DNA of 64,000 bases from Bacillota bacterium (GCA_023622945.1 JAMNYG010000056.1:284-64283); one strand, 5' to 3'; shown: positions 921-62,239, numbered from the stretch's first letter. Numbers and translations are program-made. The notes: generated from the letters alone by a model not told the origin.

Positions 921-2531
921 GGTTGTAATCAGAAAAGCAGTTGAAAAGGCTGAGAACGCCGGCGAAATTCCCCAAATAGGGATAGACCAGGTGATAATAG
1001 AAACTCCGAGGGAGAAAGAGCACGGGGACTTTTCAACCAACATTGCCATGCAGGCTGCAAAACAGGCTAAAATGCCTCCCAGGAAAATCGCTGAAGCAAT
1101 CATCAGGAACATGGATTTATAAATTTCCGCCTGAAGACAGGCTGGCTTTACAAAACCCTGGAGATCATCCAAGAGGAGAGAGAGGACTACGGCAGGATAG
1201 ACATAGGACACGGAAAGCGGGTCATGGTGGAATTTGTGAGTGCAAATCCTACGGGACCACTCCATATGGGAAATGCCAGAGGAGGAGCGCTGGGAGATTG
1301 TATAGCCAGTGTACTTGATGCAGCAGGATATGATGTTACCAGGGAGTTTTATATAAATGATGCAGGAAACCAGATAGAAAAGTTCGGAATATCGCTGGAA
1401 GCAAGGTATATACAGCTTTTAAAGGGAGAAGACGCCGTAGAATTTCCCGAAGACGGATACCACGGCGAGGATATTATTGAGCATGCAAGAGACTATATCA
1501 GGCAATACGGTGACGTTCTCCTGAACATGGACCCGGAAGAGAGACGTAAAAAGCTGGTTGAATTTGCCCTGCCAAAGAATTTGACCAGTATAAGAGAGAC
1601 CCTTGAAAGCTATGGAATAAAATATGACGTATGGTTTTCCGAACAATCCCTTTATGACAGCGGTGAAGTGGAAGATACCCTTAAAATCCTCAGCGAAAGG
1701 GGCTATACCTACGAAAAGGACGGTGCTATCTGGTTAAAGACTTCTGAGCTGGGATGCGAAAAGGATGAAGTCCTCATCCGCAATAACGGCGTTCCCACTT
1801 ATTTTGCATCGGATATAGCATACCACAGAAACAAGTTTGAGAAGCGTAAATTTGACTGGGTGATAAATCTATGGGGCGCAGACCACCACGGGCATGTGGC
1901 CAGGATGAAGGGTGCCATGAAAGCGTTAGGCCTTGATCCGGACAAGCTTGATGTGGTTATTTTCCAGCTGGTGCGCCTTTACAGAAACGGTGAGATTGCC
2001 AGGATGTCAAAAAGGACGGGTAAATCCATAACCTTAAGCGATCTCCTGGAGGAAGTTGGAAGGGATGCTGCAAGGTTTTTCTTCAATATGAAGGCATCAG
2101 GAAACCATCTTGATTTTGACCTGGACCTTGCGGTGAAAAAGTCCAATGAAAACCCGGTTTACTACGTACAATACGCTCACGCCAGGATATGCAGCATGAT
2201 GAGGATACTTGAAAGCGAGGGAATAAGACCTCCCGGCGTGGGTGAAGCAAATCTCCGGTTGCTCCGGAAGACCGAGGAATTGGAGCTGATGAGGAAACTG
2301 GCAGAATATCCCGAAGAGATAAGGATTTCAGCCCAAACCCTTGAACCGAGCAGACTTACCAGGTATGTTATGGATGTGGCAGGGCTTTTCCACAGCTTCT
2401 ATAATGCCTGCAGGGTTAAGGGAGAAGAAGAGGAGCTGATGAAAGCAAGGCTTGTGCTTGTTGACTGTACCAGGACGGTTATAAGGAATGTCCTTAACCT
2501 TTTGAGCATAGAGGCACCGGAGAGGATGTAG
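883..2531 (+). pseudogene. argS: Arginyl-tRNA synthetase, interrupted by an internal deletion and frameshift near 1113-1122
   Basis: ORF 883-1122 (MTNTIENLRKEIEVV...PRKIAEAIIRNMDL*) is the N-terminal Add-1 domain. A different frame, open from 1095, reads GFINFRLKTGWLYKTLEIIQEEREDYGRIDIGHGKRVMVEFVSANPTGPLHMGNARGG... from 1113 to the stop at 2531. That part holds the HIGH-type motif PLHMGN, MSKRTG and the anticodon-binding domain. The roughly 13-15 aa that normally link ...MD to AGPGFINF are absent and the two parts are out of frame. The longest ATG-initiated piece is 1224-2531. Confidence 0.85.
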
Positions 2532-2743
2532 CTTTAGAGAAGCATTGGCTTTTTGAGAACTTTAAGAGAAGCAATAACTTTCAGTGAAGTTTAGGAGAAA
2601 TATCAGCATTTGGGTAAGAATAAAAGGGGTACTTGCAGAATGCTTATTGTATTTGCGGAATGTTTATTACATGTCTGGAATTTTCCACCAGAATTTTGTT
2701 AAGTCCCTTATAAAATTTATAAAGTCCCCTCATAAACATATTA

Positions 2744-2783
2744 AAATAAATAGCCGATATATAAGATGCGGCTATTTATTTTT
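2744..2783 (+). terminator. Rho-independent terminator candidate downstream of argS
   Basis: 13-bp perfect stem AAATAAATAGCCG (2744-2756) / CGGCTATTTATTT (2769-2781) with a 12-nt loop, running into a T tract. The A tract on the 5' side makes it potentially bidirectional. Confidence 0.6.
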
Positions 2784-2883
2784 GGGTATCAAAGCGGAAT
2801 ATTCGACCAGGTTTTGAACATTAAGAAATTTCAAACGTCTAAAATTCTAAACAGAAAAATCTTATTTATGAAAGGGATATGAG

Positions 2884-5800
2884 ATGCTGGTCAATGGGAT
2901 AGGATTTAAAAAGTTCTGTCAGAAATTAACCGCCTTTGTAATTTCGGCTCTGATGCTTACTGCCTGTTTATCGTCTCAGGCGGCATCCACTTCCGAAACA
3001 CCCGAGGCTTTTTATACAGGCATTGAAGGAGTATCGGTCATATTAAACAACCTGAGCTTTACCGATCTGGGAAACATTGATGAAAACACAAGAAGGGCAA
3101 TTTATGAAACAGGGGCTCTGAACATTTTCAAAAGTTACGGAAGAAGGACCTTTGGCCTCAATGATCCGGTTCAGAAGGACGAAGCCATGGCCATGGCATA
3201 CACCCTTGCGGGCAGGGAGTCAGAGGTCCAGAAAACAGGAGAATCAATAAACAGTTCAAGACCTGCCGGAGAGAGAAAAAGCGATCCTTTGGAAGTTTGG
3301 CAGGACGGAGCTTTATGGTTGGCTGCCCGGGAAGGCATAATATCGGCAAATGACCTGAACGACGCTCTTTTGCAGGATCAGTCCGACCTGCCCCAGGGAA
3401 GCTTCAACAGGAACGATCCTGTTACACGCCAGGAATTTGCTGCATGGCTGGCCAAGGTTTTGAAATTGCAGCCCATATCCGACCAGCAGAAGTTGTTCAA
3501 CAGCTACAGGGACTGGATGAGGGCTGATCCCGACAAGATCCCGTATATCGAAGCAATGCTTCAGAACGACATAATGAGCGGAGACGACAGGGGATATTTC
3601 TATCCCCTCCAGGCCGTTACCAGAAGACAGGCTGTGGAGATTGCAAGAAATGCTTCAAGATATCATCTTACATCTTTAAAACTTATAAAAACCGGTACCA
3701 TTGAAAAGATTACCGTGAAAAAGGATTTTTCTTCAGAAGGTCCTGCTGATGTAAAGATATTGGATGTCAGAAACAGCAATGGTTACCTGCACAGGATAAC
3801 TTTGAGAATTCCGGCTGCCAACTCAGGCATGAATGTCAACGGGATCAACGATACAATTGCTTCGCAGGGAGAAAATGACCTGGTGGTTTTAAAGGGCGAA
3901 GTTTTGGGAAACAGCAGCCTTCTTAAGACAGGAGACAGAATAGAGTACATACTTTCCCAGGATAATACCGTCAGGTTTGTATATGTGTTTTCCAGCGCCA
4001 ATGAAATCAGGTACCTTCTTGCGAGGATAAACGGTATCGACAGGGAGAATCTTAAACTGGATGTTACACAGATTTCGGAACTAGAATATCCCAACGTCGA
4101 TTTGGGAACAGGAAGCGAATCTTTTGATATAAACAGCGGACAAATAGACGCCATATACACTTACAGCAACAATATAGAGGTTTATGAAGGAGACAGCAGG
4201 TCTGACATAAAGAATATAGCACCCGGGATTACCGCCATACTGACCGTAAGAGGAGATAACATGGTCACGGGGCTTAAAGCTGTGGAGCTGAATCTGGGTA
4301 AAGTACAGCAGGGAATAGTGGCAGGAATAGTTGAGGACAATAATCCCCAGCTGGGGTACATAACCCTGTACAATGAAGACGGCACAGGAATAAGTCCCCA
4401 GGCACGCCGGCAGATGCTTTTAAGGCGCACTTTCATCTATTACGACACTTACGGCATAGAAGTGCTGAAAGACGGGCAAAAAGCGGGCATAGACGATGTG
4501 GAACCGGGGGATTCGGTATTTTTGCAGCTGGATGACGATGGCTACGTAAAGGCAATAAGTGCGGTCAGCAACTATACTGTCAGATACGGAAGGGTGATAT
4601 CCAAGCGCCCCTCCGGAATTACCGTCAGGTTTGAAAACGGTAACAGCCAGGTGCTGAGCGTGGATGATTCGGTGATTGTTGTAGCAGACGGGAGGCTCTC
4701 GGACTACAGCAATGTAAAGGACGGTGACAGAGTGAAGCTGATCCTCCATATTACTCCCAGATCAACAAAGGTAAAGGAAATAGTGGTGGAGGACAGCAGG
4801 CATTACATGACCGGGATATACAAAGGCCAGGTTTTGTACATAAATCCCATGTCAAATACCGTGGTGCTACAAAACCTTGAGGCTTTTGACAGGGGAAGAT
4901 GGGTAAAAGGCGGACAAAACCTTTTTACCGGAATAAAGCTTGCCGATGAATACAGCCTGTACTTCAGAGGAAGGGAAATAAGCCTTAAAGAATCGGACCG
5001 GCTTGGAGGTCTGAACGCTTACATTGCTGTTCAAAAGGATTATGGCGGAGAGGAAAAGGCCGTTGTGGTTTCATTTATGAACGGTTATGACGCTGAAGTG
5101 ACCTATGATGACAGCGTAAGAAGCGTTGCCTATGGTTCAGGGGAAATCAGGCTGTTTAAGGAAAACAGGAGCATAAAATACGACGAAGGTTCCATAATTA
5201 TCAAGGACGGCAGGCTTGTCACCGGAAGCAGTATTGAACAGTCAGACACGGTTTATGTCAGCGCCGTAAGGGACTATAGCAGCAGCAATTTTTATGCCGG
5301 AGTGATACAGATAGAAAAAAGATCTGGCGGCAGCGGCTTTGACATTTACAGGGGACGCATCAGGTCCATAGAGGAGGGAAGGAGCTTCACGGTTGAATCC
5401 TTCTCAAGGTTTGAGGGTAATTCATGGAAATACTTCAATACTCCAAAGACCTTCAACATTACCTACGATACCAGGCTCCTGGATGAAAACGGCGTAGCCA
5501 GCATGGGAAATTTCGTAGGGTACGGTGAGAACAGCTATTTAGGCAAGGTGGTTTATATCGTTGCTTCCGATTTGGAATCTGTGGTCATAAGCACGGCACC
5601 CTTCGGTCCCGAGGGGACCACCGTAAAAGGTACCGTTTATGAGATGGCCGGAGGATCAACAGGAGAAGAAGGCACCGTAACAGAAGAGCCCGATGAGCTC
5701 AAAATATATGACACTGCTGTTTACGATGCTGCCAGGGATGAATGGAAGGATGGAAGCGAAATGACCCTGTCCATTCTGAAAAACAGCATAATCCTTAAGG

Positions 5801-5907
5801 ACGGAAGGATTATCAGGCCATCAGAAATAAAAAAAGGAGACAGGGTGAAAGTATACCGAAAAGGAAGCGGGTCTATAGGAGAAGCTTACATTATTCTGGT
5901 GGAATAA
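2884..5907 (+). CDS. Large secreted or wall-anchored protein with N-terminal SLH-like modules (1007 aa), possible lipoprotein
   Basis: The signal peptide ends in a lipobox-like LTAC. Three SLH-like modules follow (e.g. NDPVTRQEFAAWLAKVLKL and FYPLQAVTRRQAVEIARNA). The remaining ~750 aa are beta-rich with recurring GD(R/S)V motifs (TGDRIEY, PGDSVFL, DGDRVKL, KGDRVKV). RBS AAAGGGA lies upstream of the ATG. Confidence 0.8.
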   Translation: MLVNGIGFKKFCQKLTAFVISALMLTACLSSQAASTSETPEAFYTGIEGVSVILNNLSFTDLGNIDENTRRAIYETGALNIFKSYGRRTFGLNDPVQKDEAMAMAYTLAGRESEVQKTGESINSSRPAGERKSDPLEVWQDGALWLAAREGIISANDLNDALLQDQSDLPQGSFNRNDPVTRQEFAAWLAKVLKLQPISDQQKLFNSYRDWMRADPDKIPYIEAMLQNDIMSGDDRGYFYPLQAVTRRQAVEIARNASRYHLTSLKLIKTGTIEKITVKKDFSSEGPADVKILDVRNSNGYLHRITLRIPAANSGMNVNGINDTIASQGENDLVVLKGEVLGNSSLLKTGDRIEYILSQDNTVRFVYVFSSANEIRYLLARINGIDRENLKLDVTQISELEYPNVDLGTGSESFDINSGQIDAIYTYSNNIEVYEGDSRSDIKNIAPGITAILTVRGDNMVTGLKAVELNLGKVQQGIVAGIVEDNNPQLGYITLYNEDGTGISPQARRQMLLRRTFIYYDTYGIEVLKDGQKAGIDDVEPGDSVFLQLDDDGYVKAISAVSNYTVRYGRVISKRPSGITVRFENGNSQVLSVDDSVIVVADGRLSDYSNVKDGDRVKLILHITPRSTKVKEIVVEDSRHYMTGIYKGQVLYINPMSNTVVLQNLEAFDRGRWVKGGQNLFTGIKLADEYSLYFRGREISLKESDRLGGLNAYIAVQKDYGGEEKAVVVSFMNGYDAEVTYDDSVRSVAYGSGEIRLFKENRSIKYDEGSIIIKDGRLVTGSSIEQSDTVYVSAVRDYSSSNFYAGVIQIEKRSGGSGFDIYRGRIRSIEEGRSFTVESFSRFEGNSWKYFNTPKTFNITYDTRLLDENGVASMGNFVGYGENSYLGKVVYIVASDLESVVISTAPFGPEGTTVKGTVYEMAGGSTGEEGTVTEEPDELKIYDTAVYDAARDEWKDGSEMTLSILKNSIILKDGRIIRPSEIKKGDRVKVYRKGSGSIGEAYIILVE

Positions 5908-6032
5908 TAGGCGAGCTCTTACAGTGGTGAAACAAGCCGGTTATCTTAGCGGAAAGATGAGCAAGTCATCATAGTGTGAAAAAGCGAGATGTCATATTGT
6001 GACAATAAGCGAGGGAGTAGGGGGTATTACGG

Positions 6033-7625
6033 ATGAAGAAGACGATTAAGAGGCTTATAAGCCTGGTGGCTGCGGTGTGTTTGCTTCTGCCTTCCGTCGT
6101 TTATGCCAGGCACGGTGACGGCGGATATGAAGGCGGTATTTCCTCGGGAGAAGCTCCGGGCAAAACCCAGTATGAATACCAGGAGGTTTGCTTCCTGAGC
6201 GGGGAACCTGTTGTATTAACAGGTACCCTTACCGTCAAAAAGACCATAAAACAGAACACTATATCAACTACATATACATATGAACTCCAAAACATCGATA
6301 AGTCTGCGTCTTTGAGGAGGACGCTTACACATAGATCCATCCTTACCGAAAAGGATAACGGACAGATTATCGAAGAGGTTTATCTGACAGGCAGACCTTC
6401 TGAAACAGTAAGGATAGGAAACACGACATACACTTTAAGCAGCTATGATTTTACAAAATCCAGCCTCCTGGATCCCAATCCCGCCATTCACTACTTTGCA
6501 GGCAACCTTTGGGGGAAAAAGATATACAGGGCCAGCGGAGGAAATGTAAGCAGCGGCACTGTAATAGTTGAAGTGACGGGAAATTACTACGGGTATGACC
6601 AGTATTGGGGGAATACCGAAGTTCAGACTTTAAAATACCTGATACAGAGTCAGCTGAGGAAGGGCAACATTATCGACAGATGGGGAGGTACTGCCGATGT
6701 TGTGATATCTGCCTCTACTTCCCAGGAGTTGAAATACATAAAGAATGAACCTGAAGTGATGAGTTTTGAAGGAGGATACCTCCTTGAACAGAAAAACAGC
6801 AGCATAATGGAATACGACTGCAGACTGCCGGAATTTGACTCTTCCGGAATTTCAACCGGTAAAATGATAAGGACCCAGGACAGTCTGAAAATAGAGAGTT
6901 TTCCCGTTCAGAAAAGGCTTCCTGTACCTCAGTTAAACCATCTGAGGGGTCATCCCCAGGAAGAATACATAAACAAGCTTTTCAGTCTGGAGGTTTTCAA
7001 AGGCAACGGCTCAAAGTTCAATCCTTCCAGCTATATGACCAGGGCTGAATTTACGGCTGCTCTTGTAGAAGCTGCAAAGGAAGTTCCCAGCGACCTGACC
7101 GATGCCAAAGGAACACAGTCGGTTCTGAATGCATCATCTGCCGCAAGGACGCCGGCAACGGCCACTGCAAGATATACAGCCCTGAGAGGAAGAAAAACGG
7201 AGCCCGAGGTGGTTTCACCGTTTTTGGATGTAAGCGTTGACGACATTTATTTCAGCCAGATAGAAAGTGCTTATAAAAGAGGGCTTGTGACAGGAGTTTT
7301 GGGGAATATATTTAAACCCAACGAATACATAACTGTTGCAGAAGCGTTGACAGCGTTTATAAACGCTTTGGGTCTGGAAAACCTTGCTCCCAACCCTGTT
7401 CCGGTCACAACCTTCAGGGACAACGATGAAATTCCCCTGTATGCAAGAAAAGCAGTGTATGTTGCAGAAAAGACTGGTATAATTGAAGGTGACAAAAACG
7501 GATATCTGAGGCCCAACAGTGAACTTACAAAGGGACAGGCCGCCCAGCTGCTGTCAAGGTTCATTGATTACATGCGCCAGGATATCCGCAGGGATTTCAG
7601 GGAACACATAGTCAATTACTACTAG
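6033..7625 (+). CDS. Secreted protein with three C-terminal SLH domains (530 aa)
   Basis: Signal peptide KRLISLVAAVCLLLPSVVYA, then an unassigned ~300-aa N-terminal region. SLH modules are FNPSSYMTRAEFTAALVEA, FKPNEYITVAEALTAFINAL and LRPNSELTKGQAAQLLSRF. RBS AGGGGGT lies 7 nt upstream. Confidence 0.85.
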   Translation: MKKTIKRLISLVAAVCLLLPSVVYARHGDGGYEGGISSGEAPGKTQYEYQEVCFLSGEPVVLTGTLTVKKTIKQNTISTTYTYELQNIDKSASLRRTLTHRSILTEKDNGQIIEEVYLTGRPSETVRIGNTTYTLSSYDFTKSSLLDPNPAIHYFAGNLWGKKIYRASGGNVSSGTVIVEVTGNYYGYDQYWGNTEVQTLKYLIQSQLRKGNIIDRWGGTADVVISASTSQELKYIKNEPEVMSFEGGYLLEQKNSSIMEYDCRLPEFDSSGISTGKMIRTQDSLKIESFPVQKRLPVPQLNHLRGHPQEEYINKLFSLEVFKGNGSKFNPSSYMTRAEFTAALVEAAKEVPSDLTDAKGTQSVLNASSAARTPATATARYTALRGRKTEPEVVSPFLDVSVDDIYFSQIESAYKRGLVTGVLGNIFKPNEYITVAEALTAFINALGLENLAPNPVPVTTFRDNDEIPLYARKAVYVAEKTGIIEGDKNGYLRPNSELTKGQAAQLLSRFIDYMRQDIRRDFREHIVNYY

Positions 7626-7635
7626 GGGGGTTATT

Positions 7636-9129
7636 ATGAAAGCCGGACTGAAAAGATTGCTTGTCATACTGGTGCTGGTGGTATGCCTTGTAATACCTCA
7701 GGGAGCCTTCGCCCGTGCAGCCGAAGATGCAGAGGATATAGATTTAGGCTACATTAAGGGCGTGTTTAAAATGATCAGGGAAAAGTACGGGGACGGTGTT
7801 ACCGACGCCCAACTGTTTGAAGGAGCTATCAGGGGGATGTTGGGCGCGGTTGACGATTATACTACATATTTCGACATGGATGAGGCCAACAGCTTTCTTT
7901 CAGGGATTAACGGAGTGTATGAAGGTATAGGCGCTTCCATATCAAAAATCGGTGATTACGTGACCGTAATAAAAGTTTTTCCTGCTTCTCCGGCCGAAAA
8001 AGCCGGAATTTTATCCGGAGACAGGATTGCTTCAGTTGACGGAAAAAGCGTTTTTGGAGCGTCACTGGAAGAAGTGCAGAGCCTGCTCATGGGCAAAGCG
8101 GGTACAAAGGTATCAATAGGTGTTCTCAGGGGCAATTCCGGAGGAATTAAAACAATAGAAGTAGTCAGGGATAAAATAGTTGTCAATCCGGTATCATATG
8201 AAATCAACGGCAGAATCGCATATATAAAGCTGGATTCCTTTAATGCCAATGCAGATGAATTTTTGGGAAAAGCCCTTGAAGACATAGACAGAAAGAGAAT
8301 ACGCAAGGTGATCCTTGACCTGAGGGACAACCCCGGAGGATTGCTGGATGAGGCAATTGCCGTAGCAAGAAGGTTTGTGCCCAAAGGACTGATAACAAAG
8401 CTGGATTATTATTCTCCCAGGGAGGCTGACCAGGAATATTACTCAAACCTTGCAAAGACCAAGTACCAGCTTGTAGTGCTGGTTAACGGAAGAACCGCAA
8501 GCGCTTCTGAAATCCTGGCCGGGGCCATACAGGATACCGGAGCAGGTATTTTGGTAGGAACCAAAACTTTTGGAAAGGCTAAGGTTCAGAAGACCTACCA
8601 GATGTTGACCCCTGAAGCTCATAAAAAATACAGGGACATGCTGGGGGAGGATGTGGTCAATACCTACGACCTGATCGTAAACCATAAGATTATTCCATTT
8701 GTCAGCGAAGTCGGAGGTTATGCAAAAATAACCGTTGGGGAATATATAACCCCCGGAGGGAGAATGATAGACGGGCAGGGTATAATGCCGGATATTGTTG
8801 TGGATGATTACGGTCTGGTAAACGATATTGACATACGAAGCATACAGAAACTTTCAAAAACTTCAAATCTTGACATTAACAGTGAAGGTCTGGATGTATA
8901 CAATGCGGAGAAGATTTTAAGGGCTTTGGGATATTCCGTAAACTACCCTGATTTCAAACTGGATTTAAGGACCAAAAGGGCTATAGAGAAATTTAAGGAG
9001 GATAATCAACTGAAGTCTGATGGACTCCTCGATATTGTTACCCAGGATGCTCTGAACCGAAAACTGGAGCAGTTGATACTGGAAGTGGACAGGCAGTATG
9101 CAAAAGCGGTTGAGATATTGAAAAACTGA
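7636..9129 (+). CDS. Carboxy-terminal processing protease (peptidase S41) with PDZ and a C-terminal peptidoglycan-binding-like domain
   Basis: Signal peptide, PDZ segment (VIKVFPASPAEKAGILSGDRIASVDGKSV) and S41 core (LVVLVNGRTASASEILAGAIQD...GTKTFGKA). The C-terminal segment LRALGYSVNYPD...RAIEKFKEDNQLKSDGLLD resembles a PG_binding_1 repeat. It starts 11 nt after the upstream stop. Confidence 0.9.
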   Translation: MKAGLKRLLVILVLVVCLVIPQGAFARAAEDAEDIDLGYIKGVFKMIREKYGDGVTDAQLFEGAIRGMLGAVDDYTTYFDMDEANSFLSGINGVYEGIGASISKIGDYVTVIKVFPASPAEKAGILSGDRIASVDGKSVFGASLEEVQSLLMGKAGTKVSIGVLRGNSGGIKTIEVVRDKIVVNPVSYEINGRIAYIKLDSFNANADEFLGKALEDIDRKRIRKVILDLRDNPGGLLDEAIAVARRFVPKGLITKLDYYSPREADQEYYSNLAKTKYQLVVLVNGRTASASEILAGAIQDTGAGILVGTKTFGKAKVQKTYQMLTPEAHKKYRDMLGEDVVNTYDLIVNHKIIPFVSEVGGYAKITVGEYITPGGRMIDGQGIMPDIVVDDYGLVNDIDIRSIQKLSKTSNLDINSEGLDVYNAEKILRALGYSVNYPDFKLDLRTKRAIEKFKEDNQLKSDGLLDIVTQDALNRKLEQLILEVDRQYAKAVEILKN

Positions 9130-9288
9130 GGTTAGCATCAAAAGGCCAATTAAGCCTGACAGCAAAAAGCCAATAAGGTTACGGCAAACACCCGGTTGCG
9201 GTTAAGAATAAATTGTAAACTTCCAATCCAGGTTAAAAATGCAAACGTTCAGTTCAGGTAAAACAGTAAGTGTGAAAGAGGTAGTTTT

Positions 9289-10104
9289 ATGAGTTATCTT
9301 GGAAACCCGCTGGTTAAATTTGCGATTAATGTTCTTGTACTGATAGGGCTGTTCATGATCAATGTTTATTTGGGTCTTGGAGTGCTGACGGCTTATATAA
9401 TTTTCAGGATATACACCAACAGGGCACGGATAATGTGTTTTATAGGCAGATTTTACTATGCAAGGAATGATATCCGAAAAACCCTGGCATGGTATGAAAA
9501 AGCCTATAAAACAGGTGCCGCAGCCGCAAATGATGTCATCTCATACGGCTATCTGCTGCTTAAGACGGGAGACCTGGAAAGATCAGAGAAGATTTTCAAC
9601 TCGGTTTGGAACATGAAGCTTAGCAACGACGAAAAGATGCTGTTAAGGTCCAATACGGCACTGGTGCTCTGGAAAAAAGGACAGCTGGATGAAGCAATCG
9701 CCTTATTGGAAGAGGTGTTTTCCGAATTCAAAACAACCACCATATATGGCAGCCTGGGATACCTTCTGATTCTTAAGGGAGACCTGCATAAAGCCCTGGA
9801 ATTCAACCAGGAGGCATACCAGTATAATGATCAGAATCCGGTCATTCTGGACAACCTGGGGCAAAACTATTATCTGATGGGAGAATATGATAAGGCAAGG
9901 GAAATTTATGAAAAGGTTATGGCCAAAAACCCGGATTTCCCTGAGCCATACTATAATTACGGGTTGGTGCTTGCAGCCCTGGGTAAAAAGGAAGAAGCCC
10001 TGGAGATGATGAAAAAGGCGTTAAACTACAACTTTACATTTTTGAGCACGGTGAAGAAAGAAGAAGTGGAAAAGGCAATGGCTGATCTTTCAGAAAATGC
10101 TTAA
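9289..10104 (+). CDS. Membrane-anchored tetratricopeptide (TPR) repeat protein
   Basis: Two N-terminal hydrophobic segments, then TPR-like repeats (LAWYEKAYKTG..., AIALLEEVF..., ALEFNQEAYQYNDQNPVILDNLGQNYYLMGEYDKAREIYEKVMAKNPDFPEPYYNYGLVL). RBS AAGAGG. Confidence 0.8.
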   Translation: MSYLGNPLVKFAINVLVLIGLFMINVYLGLGVLTAYIIFRIYTNRARIMCFIGRFYYARNDIRKTLAWYEKAYKTGAAAANDVISYGYLLLKTGDLERSEKIFNSVWNMKLSNDEKMLLRSNTALVLWKKGQLDEAIALLEEVFSEFKTTTIYGSLGYLLILKGDLHKALEFNQEAYQYNDQNPVILDNLGQNYYLMGEYDKAREIYEKVMAKNPDFPEPYYNYGLVLAALGKKEEALEMMKKALNYNFTFLSTVKKEEVEKAMADLSENA

Positions 10105-10122
10105 CCAATGTTCAATTTTATG

Positions 10123-10151
10123 TTGAGATTTGATAAATAGTGTTGTAAAAT
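10123..10151 (+). promoter_or_regulatory. Candidate sigma-A promoter for pyrG
   Basis: TTGAGA (10123-10128), a 17-nt spacer, then TAAAAT (10146-10151), about 80 nt upstream of the pyrG ATG. Confidence 0.4.
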
Positions 10152-10199
10152 AACGCAGAATATAAAATGGCTGTTATTACTCAGGACAAATTCTTTTAA

Positions 10200-11852
<1,653 letters not shown>

Positions 11853-16824: not shown

Positions 16825-16830
16825 GAGAAG

Positions 16831-51190: not shown

Positions 51191-51607
51191 TCAAAGGAAA
51201 AATACTTCATATAATTTAAGGATTTTATCTATTAGAATTTTCCCCCGATTGTCAGCCAGGGGTTTCACAATGTCAAGAGTTTTTATTATATTGTATCTGT
51301 CAAATTGCCGATTTCTTGACCGTTCGAAGTGTTTCACAAGATTTGTGTACACACCGGTATACATACTGCTTTTCGAGGCAATTTCCCCGAATTGCCTTCT
51401 GTACGGCTCAGGTGAATGCTGTGCAAGAACTCTCAGCACCTCATTAAGTGTTGTGATTTTATCCAATGAGGGCGCCCTGCCTTGCCGGCTTAAGCTTTCA
51501 GAAGAGCCATGACTTACCGCCTTTTGCAGATTATATCGTATGCTGTTTATTTTGTTGACAGCAATCAAACTGTTGGCAATTGTATCCAGCTTACTATATT
51601 TGTCCAT
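51191..51607 (-). CDS. Hypothetical protein (138 aa), no family recognised
   Basis: Strong RBS on the minus strand (GAGGTGG, 4 nt, then ATG at 51607). The composition looks coding. Convergent with the preceding operon, and a GAGAGTGG/CCACTCTC hairpin (51167-51192) overlaps its stop. Confidence 0.7.
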   Translation of the reverse strand: MDKYSKLDTIANSLIAVNKINSIRYNLQKAVSHGSSESLSRQGRAPSLDKITTLNEVLRVLAQHSPEPYRRQFGEIASKSSMYTGVYTNLVKHFERSRNRQFDRYNIIKTLDIVKPLADNRGKILIDKILKLYEVFFL

Positions 51608-51864
51608 TTATCCACCTCATTATGTAAAGCCCTGAGCTGAATATGGCTTATTCTTCAGGGCATGTATGGCTTCACTGTTATTATATTATGTTAAACGGCA
51701 GGGTTTTGTTACATTGTCCTCATTATTTGGGAAAATCATGATTTGTGATATAATTTTAGAGACAGTCCTTCATTCAGGAATTCATTTAAGAGTCGGAAGA
51801 ATAATCTGAAGTAATTATCTGAGACTTCTATATATTTCTATATATTAAGGTAAGGAGTATCGAC

Positions 51865-52446
51865 GTGGAGAAGGTCATTTGTGTTTATAGCTCTTCAAGC
51901 AACATAATAGACGATGTGTATTTTAAAGCTGCCGAAGAGTTGGGCAGGGAGATCGCCAGAAGAAAAGACGTATTCCTTTTCGGAGGAGGACTTACCGGTT
52001 TAATGGGAAGAGCGGCAAAGGCTGTTCATGCTTCAGGTGGAAAAGTCATAGGTGTAATACCCAAAGCCCTGAACGTAAAAGGTATAGTATATGAATACTG
52101 TGATGAACTGGTGGTTACTGAGGGAATGAGGGAGAGAAAGGCAGTGATGGATTCAAGATCAGACGCTTTTATTGCACTGCCGGGAGGTTTTGGAACTCTT
52201 GAAGAGATTTTTGAAATCATCACCCTGAAACAGCTGAGGTATCATGACAAGCCTATTGTAATACTGAATGTAAACGGTTTTTATGACAAGCTCCTTGAAC
52301 AGTTTGAATTGATTATTGAAGAGAGATTTGCAAAGGCTGAGTGCAGAAACCTGTACTTTATCACTTCAAGCGTGACAGAAGCGCTTAAATACATAGATGA
52401 ATACCGGCCATATGTTTTTAGGGACAAATGGCTCACCGATGTATAA
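51865..52446 (+). CDS. LOG-family (TIGR00730) nucleotide phosphoribohydrolase
   Basis: ICVYSSSSN..., FGGGLTGLMG, and the PGGFGTLEE motif. GTG start 7 nt after AAGGAG. Confidence 0.88.
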   Translation: MEKVICVYSSSSNIIDDVYFKAAEELGREIARRKDVFLFGGGLTGLMGRAAKAVHASGGKVIGVIPKALNVKGIVYEYCDELVVTEGMRERKAVMDSRSDAFIALPGGFGTLEEIFEIITLKQLRYHDKPIVILNVNGFYDKLLEQFELIIEERFAKAECRNLYFITSSVTEALKYIDEYRPYVFRDKWLTDV

Positions 52447-53535: not shown

Positions 53536-53556
53536 ATTGTATGAATTATGGACAAT

Positions 53557-53586
53557 TTATGCTGGAATATGCAGCATAATTGTTCT
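53557..53586 (+). terminator. Weak terminator candidate
   Basis: TTATGCTG (53557-53564) / CAGCATAA (53572-53579), then TTGTTCT. Confidence 0.4.
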
Positions 53587-53623
53587 ATAATATCAATAAT
53601 TAAAATCAGGTTTAAATATAGGT

Positions 53624-53792
53624 AATCAGGATTATCGATAATTAGGATGACCAGTAATTAAGATTATCGGCGATCAGGATTACCAGTATTTAAGATTATC
53701 TGAAACCAAAATCAAGTTTAATAACACAAATTTAAGTTTTAGCAAACACAGATTTAAGCTTTATATAAACATAAATTCAGGCTTCATACAAC
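53624..53792 (+). repeat. Two adjacent degenerate tandem arrays upstream of proB
   Basis: Array A (53624-53702): ATCAGGATTA at 53626 and 53673, and AAGATTATC at 53660 and 53692. Array B (53709-53792): four ~21-nt units, AAATCAAGTTTAATAACAC / AAATTTAAGTTTTAGCAAACAC / AGATTTAAGCTTTATATAAAC / ATAAATTCAGGCTTCATACAAC. Confidence 0.8.
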
Positions 53793-54712: not shown

Positions 54713-54755
54713 AGAAAATGATATGCCATCATTATTCCGTTGCATATCATTTTCT
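54713..54755 (+). promoter_or_regulatory. Perfect 14-bp intercistronic hairpin between proB and proA
   Basis: AGAAAATGATATGC (54713-54726) / GCATATCATTTTCT (54742-54755) with a 15-nt loop. A T6 run follows 8 nt downstream (54764-54769). Homologous to 26825-26856. Confidence 0.7.
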
Positions 54756-54812: not shown

Positions 54813-56057
54813 ATGAATGAACTTGTCATTAAAGGCCAAAAGGCGCGCAATGCAGCCCTGAAACTGTCGAGCCTGTCTTCAACAGTGAAGGATAAGGCAC
54901 TGCAACTCATAGCTGAAAAGCTTCTTGAAAAAGAAAAGGAAATAATGGATGCCAACGGCATTGATGTAGAGAATGCGAGAAAAAAGGGGATTTCAGCAGC
55001 CCTGATAGACCGTCTGGCGTTAAATGAAAAGAGAATCCGTTCTATGGCTGACGGTCTTTTTCAGATAGCCTCTCTTCCGGATCCTGTCGGAGAAGTAATA
55101 TCCATGTGGAGAAGGCCCAACGGGCTGCAAATAGGGCAGATGCGTGTACCGTTGGGAGTCATAGGAATGATATATGAAGCCAGGCCAAATGTTACGGTGG
55201 ATGCGGCAGGACTGTGCCTGAAATCGGGGAACGCCGTAATACTGAGAGGCGGAAGTGAGGCCATCAATTCCAACAAGGCCATTGTGGCTGTCATGAACCA
55301 GGCCCTTGACGAGGCAGGGATACCTGAAGGAGCCGTACAGCTGATTGAGGACACCAGCCGTGAAACTGCCGTTGCACTCATGAAACTGAACAAATACATT
55401 GATGTGCTCATACCAAGGGGCGGTGCAGGTCTTATCAGGACGGTGGTGGAGAACTCAACAATACCGGTGATCGAAACCGGAACAGGCAATTGCCACGTGT
55501 ACGTTGAAGGTAAGGCAGACCTTGATATGGCGGAAAAAATAATCATCAATGCAAAAACAAGCAGGCCGTCTGTGTGCAATGCTGCAGAGACCCTTCTGGT
55601 TGATGAGGCCGTAGCTGCGGAGTTTCTGCCAAGGGCCCTTAAAGCCCTGAAAGACATGAATGTAGAGATACGGGGCTGTGAAAGGACCCGCCAGTTGTTT
55701 GAGGACGCGGTTGCTGCCACCGAAGAGGACTGGAGCACGGAGTATCTTGACTATATACTGGCGGTCAAGGTGGTAGGCGGCATAGATGAGGCTATAAAAC
55801 ACATAAACACTTATGGTACGAGACACTCGGAAGCCATTGTCACAAGGGATTATGACAAGGCTCAGAGATTCCTTAGAGAAGTGGATGCCGCTGCAGTGTA
55901 CGTCAATGCTTCCACAAGGTTTACTGACGGTGGAGAATTTGGATTTGGAGCTGAAATAGGCATAAGCAACCAGAAGCTGCATGCCAGGGGACCAATAGGG
56001 CTTAAGGAACTGACTATCCCCAAGTACATCATTTACGGAAGCGGACAGATAAGATAG
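54813..56057 (+). CDS. proA: Gamma-glutamyl phosphate reductase
   Basis: ...[33 protein letters not shown]..., catalytic Cys in [14 protein letters not shown]. 414 aa. Confidence 0.96.
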
Positions 56058-56148
56058 AAGCGGTAGGGCAGGACAGAAGCAGCCGGATAAGTCACAGTCA
56101 GCCGAAAAAATACACGCAACCGGATAAGATACAGGCCAACCGGATAAG
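56041..56148 (+). repeat. Direct repeats (A/G)(A/C)CCGGATAAG in the proA / PBP convergent spacer
   Basis: GCGGACAGATAAG (56041-56053, the last proA codons), AGCCGGATAAG (56081-56091), AACCGGATAAG (56118-56128), AACCGGATAAG (56138-56148). Confidence 0.8.
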
Positions 56149-56160
56149 GGAAAAAACGCA

Positions 56161-58470: not shown

Positions 58471-59556
58471 CTAGACAAACTCCCTTTCAACGGAGCTGTC
58501 AACCAGCAGAGGATTTACGTCAAGTATGACTTCGTCACCTATTCCGGCATCAACGTTTTCAAGGTCTATGACTATGTTAAACATGTTAATCCTGCCAAGG
58601 ATCCTTGCATTTTTACCCTTGACTTTCACATAGAGGTGCTTTTTGAACTGCCTGAAATCATTATACATGTATCTCAGTATATCTATGAACCTGAAGGTAT
58701 CGTTGGCCTTCACGAGACCAAAGCCGTCCTTATAGCCTACCGGGACAATGCCTATGCGCATTTTCTTTTTTGTGCGGAAGGTGTTGGCATATCCTATGTA
58801 ATGATTGGGAGGCAGATTTTTTACTTCAATGATGCAGGACTTTAAATACCCTACCTTCTTGAGGCCATAGTTATTTGCAATGGGTATACGGCCAAGCAAC
58901 ACGGACCCGGCCCTTACCGCGTCAAGGTGCATGTCTTTGAACCTAAGCAGTGCGGAAGAGTTGCAGACATGCAGCATTCCTGTATTTATGCCGTGGGCAT
59001 TGAGCTTTTCCACAACCTGGTTGAAAGCTTTGAACTGGGAATAAACTGTTTTGGCTTTCCTGCCAAAAGACGAAGAAAAATGGGTATAGGTTCCGACGAT
59101 TCTTATATTGGTCAACGACTTGAGAAGCGCATATATGTTGTCTATATCGTCGGGCAAAAAACCAAACCTGCCGAAACCCGTGTCTATCTTCAGGTGTACG
59201 TCGGCAACCACGCCCAGCCTTTTGGCGGCTTCGTTTACCGTTACAGCGGAATTTACCGAACCGATTGTAGGCATGATACCGTTCCTGATTATCAGTTCAG
59301 CTTCAGGGTCATTGCTGGTGGGCGACATGAGCAGTATTTTGTTTGTAAACCCGCAGCTCCTGAGCTTTAGCCCTTCGCTGATTTCCGATACGGCAAAATA
59401 ATATATATCGTTCTCAATCAAAAACTGGGCATACTCCGCAATGCCAAGCCCGTACCCGTTTCCTTTCAATACCGCTATGATTGTCGAATCCGTCAGGTTC
59501 CTGACTATTTCAATGTTATTTTTCAGTTTCTCCTTCTCTATTACCAGTTTCTTCAT
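58471..59556 (-). CDS. Alanine-racemase-family PLP enzyme (divergent; substrate uncertain)
   Basis: PLP-lysine motif AVLKGNGYGLG (compare the canonical AVVKANAYGHG), ...HLKIDTGFGRFGF..., ...IGYANTF..., IVPVGYKDGF. At 361 aa it is shorter and more divergent than typical Alr. RBS AAGAGG. Confidence 0.8.
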   Translation of the reverse strand: MKKLVIEKEKLKNNIEIVRNLTDSTIIAVLKGNGYGLGIAEYAQFLIENDIYYFAVSEISEGLKLRSCGFTNKILLMSPTSNDPEAELIIRNGIMPTIGSVNSAVTVNEAAKRLGVVADVHLKIDTGFGRFGFLPDDIDNIYALLKSLTNIRIVGTYTHFSSSFGRKAKTVYSQFKAFNQVVEKLNAHGINTGMLHVCNSSALLRFKDMHLDAVRAGSVLLGRIPIANNYGLKKVGYLKSCIIEVKNLPPNHYIGYANTFRTKKKMRIGIVPVGYKDGFGLVKANDTFRFIDILRYMYNDFRQFKKHLYVKVKGKNARILGRINMFNIVIDLENVDAGIGDEVILDVNPLLVDSSVEREFV

Positions 59557-60631
59557 AAGCGACCTCTTTTTTCTTCTTTCTGTGTTTCAGTTTAAATAAT
59601 TCTGCCCGAAGCTCCCTGAATAACTTTATACCTTTTTCAACCATGAAATAGGCCACCGGTCTGTATATGTAATCCATTTCGCCAACAAATTCCGTAAGTT
59701 TTCCGTTGAATCCTTTCTTGAACCTGTACAACCCGTAAAGGGGATTGTTTTCATTAAGGTCTCCCGACACACCCCTGAAGTCATATATTTCGCAGCCGCT
59801 TTCGATGGCCCATTTTATCATTTCCCACTGGAGAAGATAATTGGGCATCTTGTTTCTGTGTTTATTGCTGCTGGCCCCGTACAGGTACCAGCATTTGTTT
59901 CCGTAGAGTATTGCTATGGTCCAGGCAATTACCTCTTCTTCATAGCATGCCATGTAAAGCCTCATATGCTCAGGAGCCAGGCAGTCAAACATTTTTTCGA
60001 AATATTCGGGGCTCCTTACAACAAAACCATCCCTTATTCCGGTCTCAAGCATTATTCCGTATATCCTGCGAATATCCTCTTTTTGTCCGAGTTTCACAAC
60101 AACGCCTTTTTTTGCGGCAAGACGGATATTGTATCTCCATTTCTGGTGGAAACCCATCATTACTTCTTCTTCGGTCTTCCCGGCAATGTCCAGCCTGAAT
60201 ACGAAACGGGGCTGTATGCCTTCAAAGTTCCTGGAAGTGTCCTGTATCCTGAATCCAAGGTCCTTCATTATCTGTATGTACCTGGTATCGGTTATTTCGG
60301 TGTCGGTATCCAGCTTCAGAAGATAAGCCCTGTGCTTTTTAGCCAGCCGGTTGGCACCCTCCATGAGGGCTTTGAGCACTTCTTCATCGTGCAGGTCGCA
60401 AACGGGTCCACGGGGTGCGTACATCATTGAAACCCCCAGGAAAGGGATCTTTCTTATGAGTACGCTCATACCTCCCTTAATGTTTCCGTTATCGTCTTCC
60501 ACCGTTATTATGGCGTTTTCCCACTCGGACTTAAGTTTAGCCCACTCGGGAGACTGGGCAAAGTTACATCTTGTGTGTTGTATCAAAAAGGACTTGTATT
60601 TGTTTACATCTCCGTTAATCACTATTTTCAA
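59516..60631 (-). CDS. FemAB-family peptidoglycan interpeptide-bridge aminoacyltransferase
   Basis: ...FLIQHTRCNFAQSPEWAKLKSEW...MYAPRGPV...AYLLKLD...NKMPNYLLQWEMIKWA...YDFRGV... is a typical FemX/FemAB pattern. TTG start 9 nt after GGGAGG and 3 nt after the upstream stop. It overlaps the racemase start by 41 nt. Confidence 0.88.
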   Translation of the reverse strand: MKIVINGDVNKYKSFLIQHTRCNFAQSPEWAKLKSEWENAIITVEDDNGNIKGGMSVLIRKIPFLGVSMMYAPRGPVCDLHDEEVLKALMEGANRLAKKHRAYLLKLDTDTEITDTRYIQIMKDLGFRIQDTSRNFEGIQPRFVFRLDIAGKTEEEVMMGFHQKWRYNIRLAAKKGVVVKLGQKEDIRRIYGIMLETGIRDGFVVRSPEYFEKMFDCLAPEHMRLYMACYEEEVIAWTIAILYGNKCWYLYGASSNKHRNKMPNYLLQWEMIKWAIESGCEIYDFRGVSGDLNENNPLYGLYRFKKGFNGKLTEFVGEMDYIYRPVAYFMVEKGIKLFRELRAELFKLKHRKKKKEVAYEETGNREGETEK

Positions 60632-60634
60632 AGT

Positions 60635-61951
60635 CTACTGCCTCCCAACGTATTCTTCAACTTGTTTCAGGAAGTCTTCAAAGTACAATATGGTAAATTT
60701 CCTTTCGGCGTATACCTTCTGTAAAAGGGGGAAGAAATCATCCCCCAGCTTATTGTGTAGCTGGCCGAAATATGCTGCGGCGTCGTTGTATACATGTTTA
60801 TAATATTCCGCTTTTGACCTGTAATCCTTAAGAGCAAGGTTAAGGAACCTGTCACCGGCGTTTTTGGCCGGCTTGTAATTGCTGAGATACATTGCCAGAT
60901 AGTTGGCCAGCCCCTCATCAAAAAACGGTTCATTTATCTGGTCGGTACCTATGATGTTGTAGAACCACTGGTGAAAAACTTCGTGATAAACTACGCCTTT
61001 TAGTTTTTGTTCATTTTCAAAGCAGCTGTCGGACAAAAGTATCATATTTGACAGCTCCATGCCGTTCAGTTTTAACGGTAACCTTATGATAAACAGCTCA
61101 TCATGGGGATACGGCCCTATGTTTTCCTCTGCGAACCTGAAGGCTTGTCCGGCATAGGGAGCTGAACGGAATGAATCAATATAATATATGATTGTGCTGC
61201 CGATTCTCTCGGTTTTAATATCTGCATCGTCTAAAAGAACCGAGGAAAAGTCCCTTAAATTTCTGGCTTCAAATATGGTGATTTTTACATCACCGCTCAC
61301 CGATTCCTGTTGTTTGCCCGGAGCAAATACTGTAAGGCCCTTAGGCGCTTTGAATGTTATATGATAATCGTACACGTTATATATGTACGGGTCGCCGTAA
61401 TCATATTTAAAAGTAAGGATCGGACTGCCGTCCCTGTAAACAGCCGGGGTCGCCAGAAAATTGCTCAAAACCACCCGTCCGTCCGAACAGGATAGTATGC
61501 CCAGGTTGTCGGCAAGAGTTATTTTGTATTCCAGGCTAAGCTTACCTGAAGCTATGGGACCGTATACTTCAAGATAAGCATCCTTAACATCAAATTCCAC
61601 GCTGGTTCCGTCAGACGAAACATTAATTATTTCTGTATGGGCATGGTTAATCGAGGGCAGATAAACTATTGCAACATCTCTTCTCTCATCTATCAGGATA
61701 TCTTCCCTGATGCTTACCAAACGGCCTGCCACCTGGATTTCTGCCTTAATGTCAAAAGACGGCCCGGACGTGGAAGATGGATCGGACAAAGCCGTATTTT
61801 CTTTCTGCGTACCAACAGGAATATCCTGTGTGCGGGCACTTGCTGAGGGCTCAGCAGACGCCAAAAGCGCGAATATCAGAACAAGTGCGGCACACTCTCC
61901 TATTATTGCTGAAATAAACAATATCACAATCCTTATCCTGGTCAGTTTCAT
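60635..61951 (-). CDS. Membrane-anchored M1-like (gluzincin) metallopeptidase
   Basis: N-terminal TM anchor. HEVFH followed 19 residues later by the E of DEGLANY (HExxH-x18-E). RBS AAGAGG. Confidence 0.82.
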   Translation of the reverse strand: MKLTRIRIVILFISAIIGECAALVLIFALLASAEPSASARTQDIPVGTQKENTALSDPSSTSGPSFDIKAEIQVAGRLVSIREDILIDERRDVAIVYLPSINHAHTEIINVSSDGTSVEFDVKDAYLEVYGPIASGKLSLEYKITLADNLGILSCSDGRVVLSNFLATPAVYRDGSPILTFKYDYGDPYIYNVYDYHITFKAPKGLTVFAPGKQQESVSGDVKITIFEARNLRDFSSVLLDDADIKTERIGSTIIYYIDSFRSAPYAGQAFRFAEENIGPYPHDELFIIRLPLKLNGMELSNMILLSDSCFENEQKLKGVVYHEVFHQWFYNIIGTDQINEPFFDEGLANYLAMYLSNYKPAKNAGDRFLNLALKDYRSKAEYYKHVYNDAAAYFGQLHNKLGDDFFPLLQKVYAERKFTILYFEDFLKQVEEYVGRQ

Positions 61952-62101
61952 CCAGCTGCCTCTTTGCCAAATATAATCTGTTTTTTCAGAATATCAAATC
62001 CAAAATATTTAAAATAAAATCTGAATAAAAAAACGGGTGTAACAGTTTAAATCAAATTAAAATATTAAATAATCAAATTATTAAATCAAATCTGAATATC
62101 A

Positions 62102-62239
62102 GGTCAAAATCTGATAATATCATAACAATATCAAATCAGAATTTAATAAAATAAGGTCAAAATCTGTAATACTGAATCAGGTTTAATGATCTTCTGATCT
62201 GCATTGAATTCATTCTTCAAAAAATCCAAGGTCAAAATC
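62102..62239 (-). repeat. GGTCAAAATC x3 echo repeat at and after the PBP1A 3' end
   Basis: Plus-strand coordinates 62102-62111, 62155-62164 and 62230-62239. The last copy is inside the final codons (..FDFDL..) of the minus-strand gene. The surrounding 61980-62200 region is full of AAATC(A/T)GA-type reiterations. Confidence 0.8.

Follow-up and report, generated by a model that had tools for sequence, protein, structure and literature searches.

Bacterial spacers are usually viewed as tightly packed regulatory sequence under deletion bias. The question raised by the stretch analysed here (Bacillota bacterium, GCA_023622945.1, JAMNYG010000056.1:284-64283; 64,000 nucleotides (nt), hereafter the window, with positions counted from its first letter) is how spacer DNA can come to consist of degenerate tandem copies, or echoes, of short units that differ from locus to locus and that in places begin with the last codons of the upstream gene. 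A preliminary description, made from the sequence alone, had listed such spacers and proposed that they form by serial local duplication at gene 3' ends, followed by divergence. The echoes are a real, dense footprint of ordinary short tandem duplication and not a new genetic element, and they are probably best understood as decaying duplications of about 10-60 nt that have accumulated in the non-coding DNA of a species-level lineage of the Acetivibrionales.

Tandem echoes in the spacers of the window

Self-similarity was scored by banded Smith-Waterman self-alignment at offsets of 8-70 nt, over each spacer together with the last 30 nt of its upstream gene, and was judged against dinucleotide-preserving shuffles and against shuffles inside 25-nt blocks. 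Compared with shuffles, 13 of the 30 curated spacers reach z>3, 8 reach z>5 and 15 have p<=0.05. Echoes occupy 1150 of 8392 spacer bases (13.7%, vs 1.1% in shuffles), while coding controls reach z>3 in 1 of 90 segments of 250 nt (vs spacers, Fisher P=1.6e-8). Tandem echoes with the units first quoted are present at every locus that had been listed, and Tandem Repeats Finder (TRF) reports arrays there too; at 22836 the units exist but are weak when taken alone (z 2.5, p 0.04), and the strongest array of all (45776-45864) is additional to the original list. By TRF and self-alignment alike, two or more units of about 10-100 nt follow one another head to tail in the arrays, with above-chance similarity. 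The copies are 60-88% identical (61-85% between adjacent copies), and perfect copies occur in no array. The periods are heterogeneous (11-58 nt) and untied to the DNA helical repeat, and the sense strand of the arrays is A-rich, with 44% A vs 35% across all spacers.

Within genes, the weak repeats that do occur have periods that are nearly all multiples of 3 (9, 15, 12/30, 18, 39, 24). Self-alignment detected no echoes between the genes of the ribosomal-protein and rpoBC operons, where conserved leaders lie, and the L10, rpoB and S12 leader regions contain no arrays.

No unit is shared across loci, the top score of an all-vs-all BLAST of the spacers (30.2 bits) being the shuffle maximum (30.2). 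With a separate unit at each locus and BLAST at shuffle level, a dispersed family of the REP, BIME or MIRU type is ruled out, as is a CRISPR array by the degenerate, abutting units and by the lack of cas genes and Cas proteins in the Pfam annotation of the window; both had been correctly set aside from the start. Known structured RNAs are ruled out as well, since the sole Rfam match in the window is the L10 leader (31546-31695), which is not an array, and the arrays stay unmatched even at E<=0.5.

Comparison with a sister species and more distant relatives

A sister species (GCA_040364295.1 and Logan SRR25844769), reached via homologues 90%, 93% and 78% identical to three window proteins, shares 81-85% nucleotide identity with the window over aligned stretches. 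The ilvD-ilvB spacers of the two align at 84% identity save for a clean 28-nt insertion in the window, placed right after the stop codon, whose sequence copies the ilvD end and stop before it at 64-70% identity. Past the conserved spoIIR terminator, the window carries an insertion of 19-20 nt that copies the preceding 22 nt and that the sister does not have; the spoIIR 3' untranslated region (3'UTR) measures 136 nt in the window vs 31 nt in the sister. This second copy is invisible to self-similarity alone (z 0.1-1.8). At both places the duplicated unit is absent from the orthologous locus and copies adjacent sequence, which bears out the proposal of serial local duplication followed by divergence. 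Over the ~6.9 kb aligned with the sister, spacers hold all six indels of at least 4 nt; the window has the additional sequence in five of them (152 nt) and the sister in one (10 nt). None of seven sister spacers reaches z>3 (vs window, Fisher P 0.034). For the array at 53622 the sister contig is uninformative, because synteny breaks directly after the stop codon: homology stops there, and a different downstream gene and a plain terminator are found, with the array absent.

A syntenic relative at family level (contigs L169 and L170) equals the window in GC content; 1 of 11 spacers of L169 stands at a borderline z=3.0 and none is higher. The terminator of its ATPase gene follows about 20 nt past the stop, where the window interposes a 115-nt array, and in another relative (L003) the array is absent from the orthologous spacer after pyrG. 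The ilvD-ilvB gap spans 180 nt in the window (26750-26929), 148 nt in the sister and 2 nt in L169 (11666-11667), and the junction in window and sister carries a conserved hairpin/motif. The window lineage has therefore gained an entire inter-cistronic region, which is possibly regulatory. Derivation of this spacer from the ilvD leader was also considered and rejected, as the local alignment scores 21, where shuffles average 17 and reach 23, and only a short motif aligns.

Seeding from gene ends

To relate echoes to gene ends, the final 30 nt of every gene were aligned with the 120 nt that follow, and mismatched gene/spacer pairs served as the control. Six of 33 gene ends echo at p<=0.05, vs 1.7 expected (binomial P=0.005), namely ilvD (p 0.001), the PBP gene at 62210 (score 27, with no mismatched control pair equally high), the TPR gene, spoIIR (p 0.02), nusG and proA (p 0.049). 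The mirror test, of gene starts against upstream spacers, yields 1 of 32, and the gene ends of 106 other Firmicute loci are at chance level (56 of 1080 at p<=0.05; window vs these, P=0.006). Gene-end seeding is thus real, specific to the window genome among the genomes compared, and confined to a minority of loci. The preliminary description had taken the last codons to be often the seed of the spacer; this stands for the six ends named, while the argS and S41 protease ends that it offered as examples are not significant singly (S41 p 0.16). A process peculiar to 3' ends, as it had also supposed, is unneeded: the strongest arrays (45776-45864 and 53622-53792) lie past terminators and upstream of the next gene, and if duplications survive only where they are harmless, gene ends would echo and gene starts would not.

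Echoes in other Firmicutes

For a comparison across Firmicutes, 106 loci were fetched around pyrG and proB, and identical automatic gene calls were used throughout. On these calls the window has z>3 in 9 of 30 spacers (30%) and z>5 in 7 of 30, and the other loci have z>3 in 84 of 1006 (8.3%) and z>5 in 42 of 1006 (4.2%), a difference with P=8e-4 and 3e-4, respectively. The phenomenon exists at a background level across Firmicutes. The window shows a four- to six-fold enrichment, which puts it close to the top of the distribution, where other loci stand too. Automatic gene calls swallow arrays into spurious open reading frames (ORFs), so that arrays are under-counted.

In Bacillaceae, Sporolactobacillus, Halanaerobiaceae (Halanaerobiales) and Anaerovorax, intergenic arrays particular to their locus were seen, with 6-12 copies of a 22-55-nt unit. 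Many of them combine a conserved core of about 10 nt with a variable remainder, an example being the core ACTGTCG(G/C/T)A that three Bacillaceae genera carry some 9 kb upstream of pyrG, and several lie directly 3' of the pyrG terminator. These arrays look more like functional site arrays than the window echoes do.

Probable duplication followed by decay

The most likely molecular step behind the echoes is slipped-strand mispairing, an established mechanism. During replication or repair synthesis, the nascent strand would realign on a nearby short microhomology, so that a stretch is copied twice; the A-rich, low-complexity spacers would supply many such microhomologies. Repeated rounds would build arrays and higher-order units, while point substitutions and small indels would erode the copies to their present level of identity (60-88%). 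Successive rounds are indicated by the match quality of the two strongest arrays, which is better at period 34 than at 17 (88% vs 82% matches by TRF, at 45776-45864) and better at 32 than at 16 (at 53622-53792). A duplication straddling a stop codon would leave the gene intact and deposit a non-functional duplicate of its final codons in the 3'UTR, where it would be read as a gene-end echo, whereas selection would remove a duplication that spans a start codon or falls within a gene or a structured leader. Such a filter against harm would explain the asymmetry between gene starts and ends, the in-frame periods inside genes and the array-free conserved leaders without any mechanism specific to 3' ends. 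Arrays are found in all unconstrained contexts, that is in 3'UTRs, past terminators, in upstream regions and in operon gaps. The net outcome would be a lengthening of spacers in the window lineage, and a function of the copies need not be assumed.

Several points weigh against duplication and decay as a full account. The sample is narrow, being a 64-kb stretch from one contig of a metagenome-assembled genome. No array varies in copy number between the strains compared (98.2-100% identity) and none has perfect copies; ongoing duplication at a high rate is not demonstrated, and the pattern could be that of a past burst. The indels between window and sister are not surely polarised, as a one-copy deletion in the sister could align alike. 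The ilvD-end copy has diverged by about 30-36%, vs 16% for the flanking spacer between species, which calls for an old event or for imprecise copying. Units of 16-58 nt exceed typical bacterial insertions, few of which are >15 nt (PMC6054270). A purely neutral model does not predict the sense-strand richness in A (44% vs 35%), the search for a conserved core within units has low power, and the accumulation of echoes in the window lineage but not in its sister is left unexplained.

Error-prone copying and functional arrays as alternatives

Part of this evidence would fit an error-prone copying process specific to the lineage, by which the echoes were born degenerate rather than produced by slippage and slow decay. 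The process could be double-strand-break repair with templated insertions, in which an end-joining polymerase primes on microhomology and copies the flanks imprecisely, or could have arisen once a factor that keeps such events in check was lost. It would account for the lack of perfect copies in arrays that nevertheless postdate the split from the sister, for the make-up of the ilvD-end copy (a perfect 12-nt block between poor segments, more diverged than the interspecies spacer), for the lineage-specific density of the echoes and for units above the usual size of bacterial insertions. The organism is also a spore-former, as spoIIR in the window indicates, and spore-formers commonly carry Ku/LigD end joining. 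Against this, mismatches are spread evenly across 20 arrays and do not fall in blocks, ordinary decay since the species split suffices if the spacers are neutral, templated insertions of the end-joining type are documented mainly in eukaryotes, and the view is limited to 64 kb. Error-prone copying is considered unlikely. A broader proposal, that the window lineage has or had a distinctive mutational regime which manufactures spacer DNA through unusually frequent templated duplications of 15-60 nt that may be imprecise, is similarly improbable; its source could be, for example, end-joining repair in a spore-former or a lost slippage-suppressing function.

A functional role of the arrays, as reiterated binding sites or as spacers that distance terminators, appears improbable. 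The arrays might act as DNA-level sites for regulators or nucleoid proteins (e.g., the 17-nt array upstream of the flavoprotein gene), as RNA sites in 3'UTRs, such as purine-rich A/G repeats for an Hfq- or CsrA-like protein, or as spacing that separates terminators from terminating ribosomes. Their A-rich sense strand, the position of several arrays exactly between stop codon and terminator, the absence of change between strains, and the similar Bacillaceae arrays with a visible conserved core at the same relative position in several genera all speak for such a role. Yet a different unit at every locus leaves no one factor able to read them all, and the orthologous spacers of the sister and of syntenic relatives are without arrays while the genes are otherwise conserved. 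Mismatches between copies are unclustered (20 arrays, mean runs z +0.54), and no conserved core was detected by this test, which is weak and of low power, its positive control being significant in only 1 of 7 Bacillaceae arrays with visible cores. The combination of a conserved core and orthologous conservation expected of a binding-site array was thus not found in the window, within the power of the core test. The earlier suggestion that the copies supply reiterated stop codons finds no support, as the median distance to the next in-frame stop is 9 codons vs 10.5 in shuffles, and Rfam matches are lacking. On sequence grounds the binding-site reading is disfavoured because units are locus-specific, periods are heterogeneous (11-58 nt, with no link to the helical repeat) and close relatives have no arrays in their orthologous spacers.

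Chance similarity in A-rich, low-complexity spacers is very improbable as the source and is refuted for the set as a whole: although the arrays at 11853-12040 and 62009-62199 lie in A-/AT-rich sequence (block-shuffle means there of 26-28) and some of the first examples are weak singly (22836 and the S41 gene end), the arrays are significant against both dinucleotide and 25-nt block shuffles (the A-rich ones still at z 5.9-6.4), echo bases far exceed expectation, and the insertions verified against the sister species copy their flanks.

Fidelity of the sequence

The preliminary description had asked whether the spacers are natural sequence at all, and had wished an assembly or generative artefact to be excluded before any biology is built on them. 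Independent contigs, assembled from other samples (JGI, Logan), were retrieved through exact-protein look-ups. JGI 3300022235 corresponds to window 3585-12158 at 99.93% (6 SNPs (single-nucleotide polymorphisms), zero gaps), Logan SRR12348546 to 7196-9395, three more contigs to 11977-13153 at 100% and JGI 3300022212 to 58790-62711 at 98.2%, gap-free; further matching Logan assemblies are SRR29782971 and SRR29782973. The total independent coverage is about 13 kb at 98.2-100% and takes in six spacers, including the arrays at 5950, 9130, 11853 and 62009, with zero spacer indels. The array at 5950-6012 and that of pyrG are identical in L001, the JGI contig that ends at 12158, the S41 spacer is found in L001 and L002 with one SNP, and the array at 62009-62243 is identical in the assembly L167. 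Exact-product look-ups for the proB, flavoprotein and ATPase genes were empty, which leaves the strongest arrays (16825, 45776 and 53622) without independent coverage. The sister-species spacers align with those of the window except at inserted copies, which argues that the sequence is real.

The sequence is natural wherever it could be checked, and an artefact is excluded for those parts. For the spacers in general, an origin in assembly or generation has next to no probability: the source contig is metagenome-assembled, argS is seemingly frameshifted near 1100-1130, which could be an assembly or sequencing error, and three strong arrays are uncovered, but assemblies from other samples agree gap-free over six spacers, arrays included, and the sister confirms the sequence outside the inserted copies. 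Short-read assemblers collapse repeats and are not known to invent diverged ones.

Over the six spacers covered, in few strains at 98.2-100% identity, no change in copy number between strains was found, so that the arrays do not behave there as variable-number tandem repeats (VNTRs). The one diverged strain (L167, 98.2%) has little power for this comparison, as its SNPs lie mainly in alr and its spacer is SNP-free. Between the window and L167, 60 of 70 SNPs over 3.9 kb fall within alr (58790-59556; 8.3% divergence), with 0.1-0.7% divergence in neighbouring genes and zero in the spacer, and this cluster looks like a recombination tract. Two JGI 3300022235 contigs meet at 12158-12160, in the gap that separates the pyrG terminator from the start codon of spoIIR (L001 runs up to 12158 and L166 begins at 12160); assemblies of this organism break up in spacers.

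Arrays and their settings

The arrays (Table 1) occupy four settings. Those of pyrG, the ATPase gene and spoIIR lie between stop codon and terminator; those at 45776, 53622 and 13116 lie just past a terminator and upstream of the next gene; those at 5950, 9130, 22836, 26751 and 44346 are in terminator-less operon interiors; and that at 56058 is in a convergent gap. The arrays are thus not bound to the 3' ends of genes as such. Folding confirmed the terminators at 12088-12127 (pyrG, -12.5 kcal/mol), 13074-13097, 16970-16995 (ATPase gene, -18.6 kcal/mol), 45646-45679 and 53550-53585, to which consensus promoter and terminator scans added little.

Table 1. Echo arrays of the window, the dispersed motif of its spacers, and intergenic arrays in other Firmicute loci (coordinates in the last two rows are those of the loci named).
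Feature	Position (strand)	Unit and copies	Setting	z
Three adjoining arrays	2532-2745 (+)	2532-2603, 29 nt, 2.4 copies; 2629-2668, 20 nt, 2 copies; 2701-2745, 22 nt, 2 copies	3' of argS stop	5.0
SLH spacer array	5950-6012 (+)	~25 nt, 2-3 copies	Between two SLH-protein genes, terminator-less operon interior	6.8
S41 array	9100-9262 (+)	~23 nt, 4 copies; second pair 9215-9262	First copy within S41 protease gene end	3.2
pyrG array, A-rich, degenerate	11832-12040 (+)	23-32 nt	From last 6 codons and stop of pyrG through 3'UTR to terminator	10.5 (11853-12040)
spoIIR 3'UTR with tandem copy	12938-13152 (+)	19-20 nt, copy at 13116-13134	Copy directly past conserved terminator 13074-13097	
ATPase array	16825-16940 (+)	Recurrent RCAGGTATTT, spacings 21-31 nt	P-type ATPase stop to terminator 16970-16995	9.7
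Short array	17102-17137 (+)	11 nt	Upstream of ABC transporter gene	
CATAAAAG... array	22836-22905 (+)	~24 nt, three copies	First copy is last 7 codons and stop of gene 21783-22856	2.5
ilvD-end copy	26722-26785 (+)	28 nt, tandem copy; insertion 26751-26778	ilvD end and stop	5.7
fusA-end copy	44346-44382 (+)	17 nt, two copies	Across fusA stop	2.1 (marginal)
AGAATAATATCGACAGA array, strongest	45776-45864 (+)	17 nt, 5 copies as 34-nt dimers	3' of tuf terminator (45646-45679), 5' of flavoprotein gene	17.7
Short repeats	51796-51846 (+)	13 nt and 10 nt	Upstream of gene 51865-52446	4.6
Two abutting arrays	53622-53792 (+)	16/32 nt, ~5 copies, then 22 nt, ~4 copies	Past terminator 53550-53585, upstream of proB	14.7
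CCGGATAAG array	56041-56148 (+)	CCGGATAAG and ~11 nt, 3-4 copies	Convergent proA/PBP gap	9.1 (56058-56148)
AGATTTTGACCT array	62009-62243 (-)	~57 nt with AGATTTTGACCT, 3 copies	First minus-strand copy is last 10 codons of PBP gene 62210-63979	6.4 (62009-62199)
CATATCATTTTCC-motif matches	24878-24889; 26844-26855; 47166-47177 (-); 54714-54725 (-); 54743-54754 (+)	12-mer core		
Other Firmicutes, I	L043 716-906, 3007-3155; L050 809-1076, 11594-11801; L062 1066-1269, 11594-12006			
Other Firmicutes, II	L071 3254-3589; L049 2371-2629, 8322-9047; L046 7113-7460; L072 7054-7393; L008 4600-4814			

Individual arrays differ in how they meet the gene. In the argS spacer, where 101 echo bases stand vs 3.8 expected and TRF reports 2532-2599 at period 29 with 77% matches, the first copy begins just past the stop codon and so lies outside the gene. 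The pyrG array comprises 170 echo bases. The third CATAAAAG copy overlaps position 22896, the GTG at which the following ORF is listed to start. TRF places 53622-53700 at period 32 with 82% matches and 56083-56148 at period 20; a weaker proA-end echo comes before the CCGGATAAG array. The AGATTTTGACCT array contains AT-rich sub-repeats of 8-21 nt at 62050-62091. Adjacent to it, the PBP gene (62210-63979, minus strand) has a degenerate in-frame repeat of 24 nt at 62263-62420 (TRF: 3.5 copies, 72% matches), which encodes a low-complexity C-terminal tail; the gene-end echo of the spacer lies a short way downstream.

Four ORFs of 77-138 codons fall mostly or entirely within non-coding spacers, at 2584-2817 (+), 16840-17100 (-), 45688-45972 (-) and 51191-51607 (-). 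Three of the four overlap echo arrays, and a Pfam match is absent for both of those tested (2584-2817 and 51191-51607); they are probably spurious.

The lineage and other features of the window

The window is an ordinary chromosomal region of a spore-forming, uncultured member of the Clostridia. Its genes run from DUF1934, argS, two SLH-domain proteins, a CtpB-like S41 protease, a TPR protein, pyrG and spoIIR through mgtC, a P-type ATPase, an ABC transporter cluster, cvpA, ilvD and ilvB to nusG-rplKAJL-rpoBC-rpsLG-fusA-tuf, a flavodiiron-type protein, MoxR/DUF58 and proBA, after which five cell-wall genes follow on the minus strand. The lineage is an isolated one, as 9 of 10 window proteins looked up in 90%-identity clusters are singletons and the tenth clusters only with another assembly of the same organism; all ten sit on a single NCBI contig (65,722 nt). 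The closest named relatives belong to the Acetivibrionales: IlvD is 83-85% identical to that of Acetivibrio thermocellus, A. clariflavus and A. saccincola, and for PyrG the identity is 81% to the protein of a metagenome-assembled genome labelled 'Acetivibrio sp.', which is syntenic over seven genes. The scans for relatives gave best protein identities of 74% (metagenome scan, ProB) and 81% (genome scan, PyrG), and none closer.

The argS gene appears interrupted (921-1223, around 1100-1130). The frame of its N-terminal domain ends at about 1115, the remainder continues from '...GFINFRL' in another frame with about 15 residues apparently missing, and the longest ORF begins at 1224; the break is either genuine, as a frameshift or deletion that affects an essential gene, or else an error of the metagenome-assembled genome.

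A motif of about 25 nt, TTATTCC-N4-CATATCATTTTCC, is dispersed over four spacers, upstream of ilvD, upstream of ilvB, in the proB-proA gap and 3' of the flavoprotein gene. Its 12-mer core has 5 matches vs 0.64 expected, a number reached in 0 of 100 shuffles. The pair in the proB-proA gap forms a perfect 13-bp hairpin (54713-54755; -19.6 kcal/mol, z -5.1). The motif is kept in the sister species upstream of both ilvD and ilvB, has no Rfam match, and may be a candidate cis-regulatory element of amino-acid biosynthesis genes.

Relation to known repeats

Slippage-generated repeats are familiar as bacterial minisatellites or VNTRs, which serve as markers in multiple-locus VNTR analysis (MLVA; MIRU-VNTR in Mycobacterium tuberculosis) and consist of head-to-tail intergenic copies of units of about 10-100 nt. 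VNTR copies are near-identical and their number varies between strains, and MIRUs form a single dispersed family that abuts flanking stop and start codons. The window arrays are likewise head-to-tail and intergenic, with units in the same range, but their copies are 60-88% identical, no change in their copy number is seen between strains at 98-100% identity and, unlike MIRUs, they have their own unit at every locus. With REP/BIME elements and CRISPR they share only that repeated sequence is intergenic, as the window has no common or palindromic unit, and its copies are head-to-tail with no unique spacers of constant length. A continuous genesis of tandem repeats, with subsequent decay or deletion, was reportedly described by Achaz et al. 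in 2002.

Close direct repeats are mostly over-represented in prokaryotic intergenic regions, with fewer of them in thermophiles (Huang and Mrazek, 2014, PMC4060949). The window echoes resemble these in being short copies within tens of nt, intergenic and not genic, without a family, and open to the same reading as local duplications. They differ in that exact 8-10-mers were counted genome-wide in that study, whereas the window has multi-copy degenerate arrays, gene-end anchoring and a single lineage with nearly half of its spacers affected. Of the insertions in bacterial pseudogenes that evolve neutrally, about half create direct repeats, and few insertions are >15 nt (Danneels et al., 2018, PMC6054270); the elementary event, an insertion that copies its flank, is alike, but the units in the window are of 16-58 nt and the events are stacked into arrays. 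In mantis mitogenomes, intergenic gaps derive from duplicated gene-abutting sequence that later becomes degenerate (PMC5370444). There too spacers are traceable to copies of adjacent gene flanks, partly tandem and degenerating, though the setting is an organelle with gene-scale duplications and rearrangements and not a bacterial chromosome with events of 10-60 nt.

A search of the literature found no named description of bacterial gene-end echoes at such density. The initial remark that no described mechanism was known is overstated all the same, given the published excess of intergenic direct repeats (PMC4060949), the pseudogene insertions (PMC6054270) and the occurrence of echoes in about 8% of other Firmicute spacers. 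The kind is known, and the window is an unusually dense, well-resolved and lineage-specific case with larger units.

Significance

In practical terms, degenerate echoes 3' of stop codons are natural and should not be taken for assembly or generative artefacts, and they can yield spurious ORFs (such as 2584-2817, 16840-17100 and 45688-45972). With about 14% of spacer bases traceable to recent local copying, and a sister species without the copies, the window shows that a simple process can lengthen non-coding DNA and 3'UTRs fast within a single lineage. If this is true genome-wide, the organism and its sister would form a pair for measuring the birth and decay rates of bacterial non-coding DNA, and would also inform on selection against duplications at gene boundaries and on the later co-option of new 3'UTR and promoter-upstream sequence. 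Should a distinctive mutational regime prove to be at work, the lineage would offer a natural system for the birth of non-coding DNA, 3'UTRs and new regulatory sequence from gene ends.

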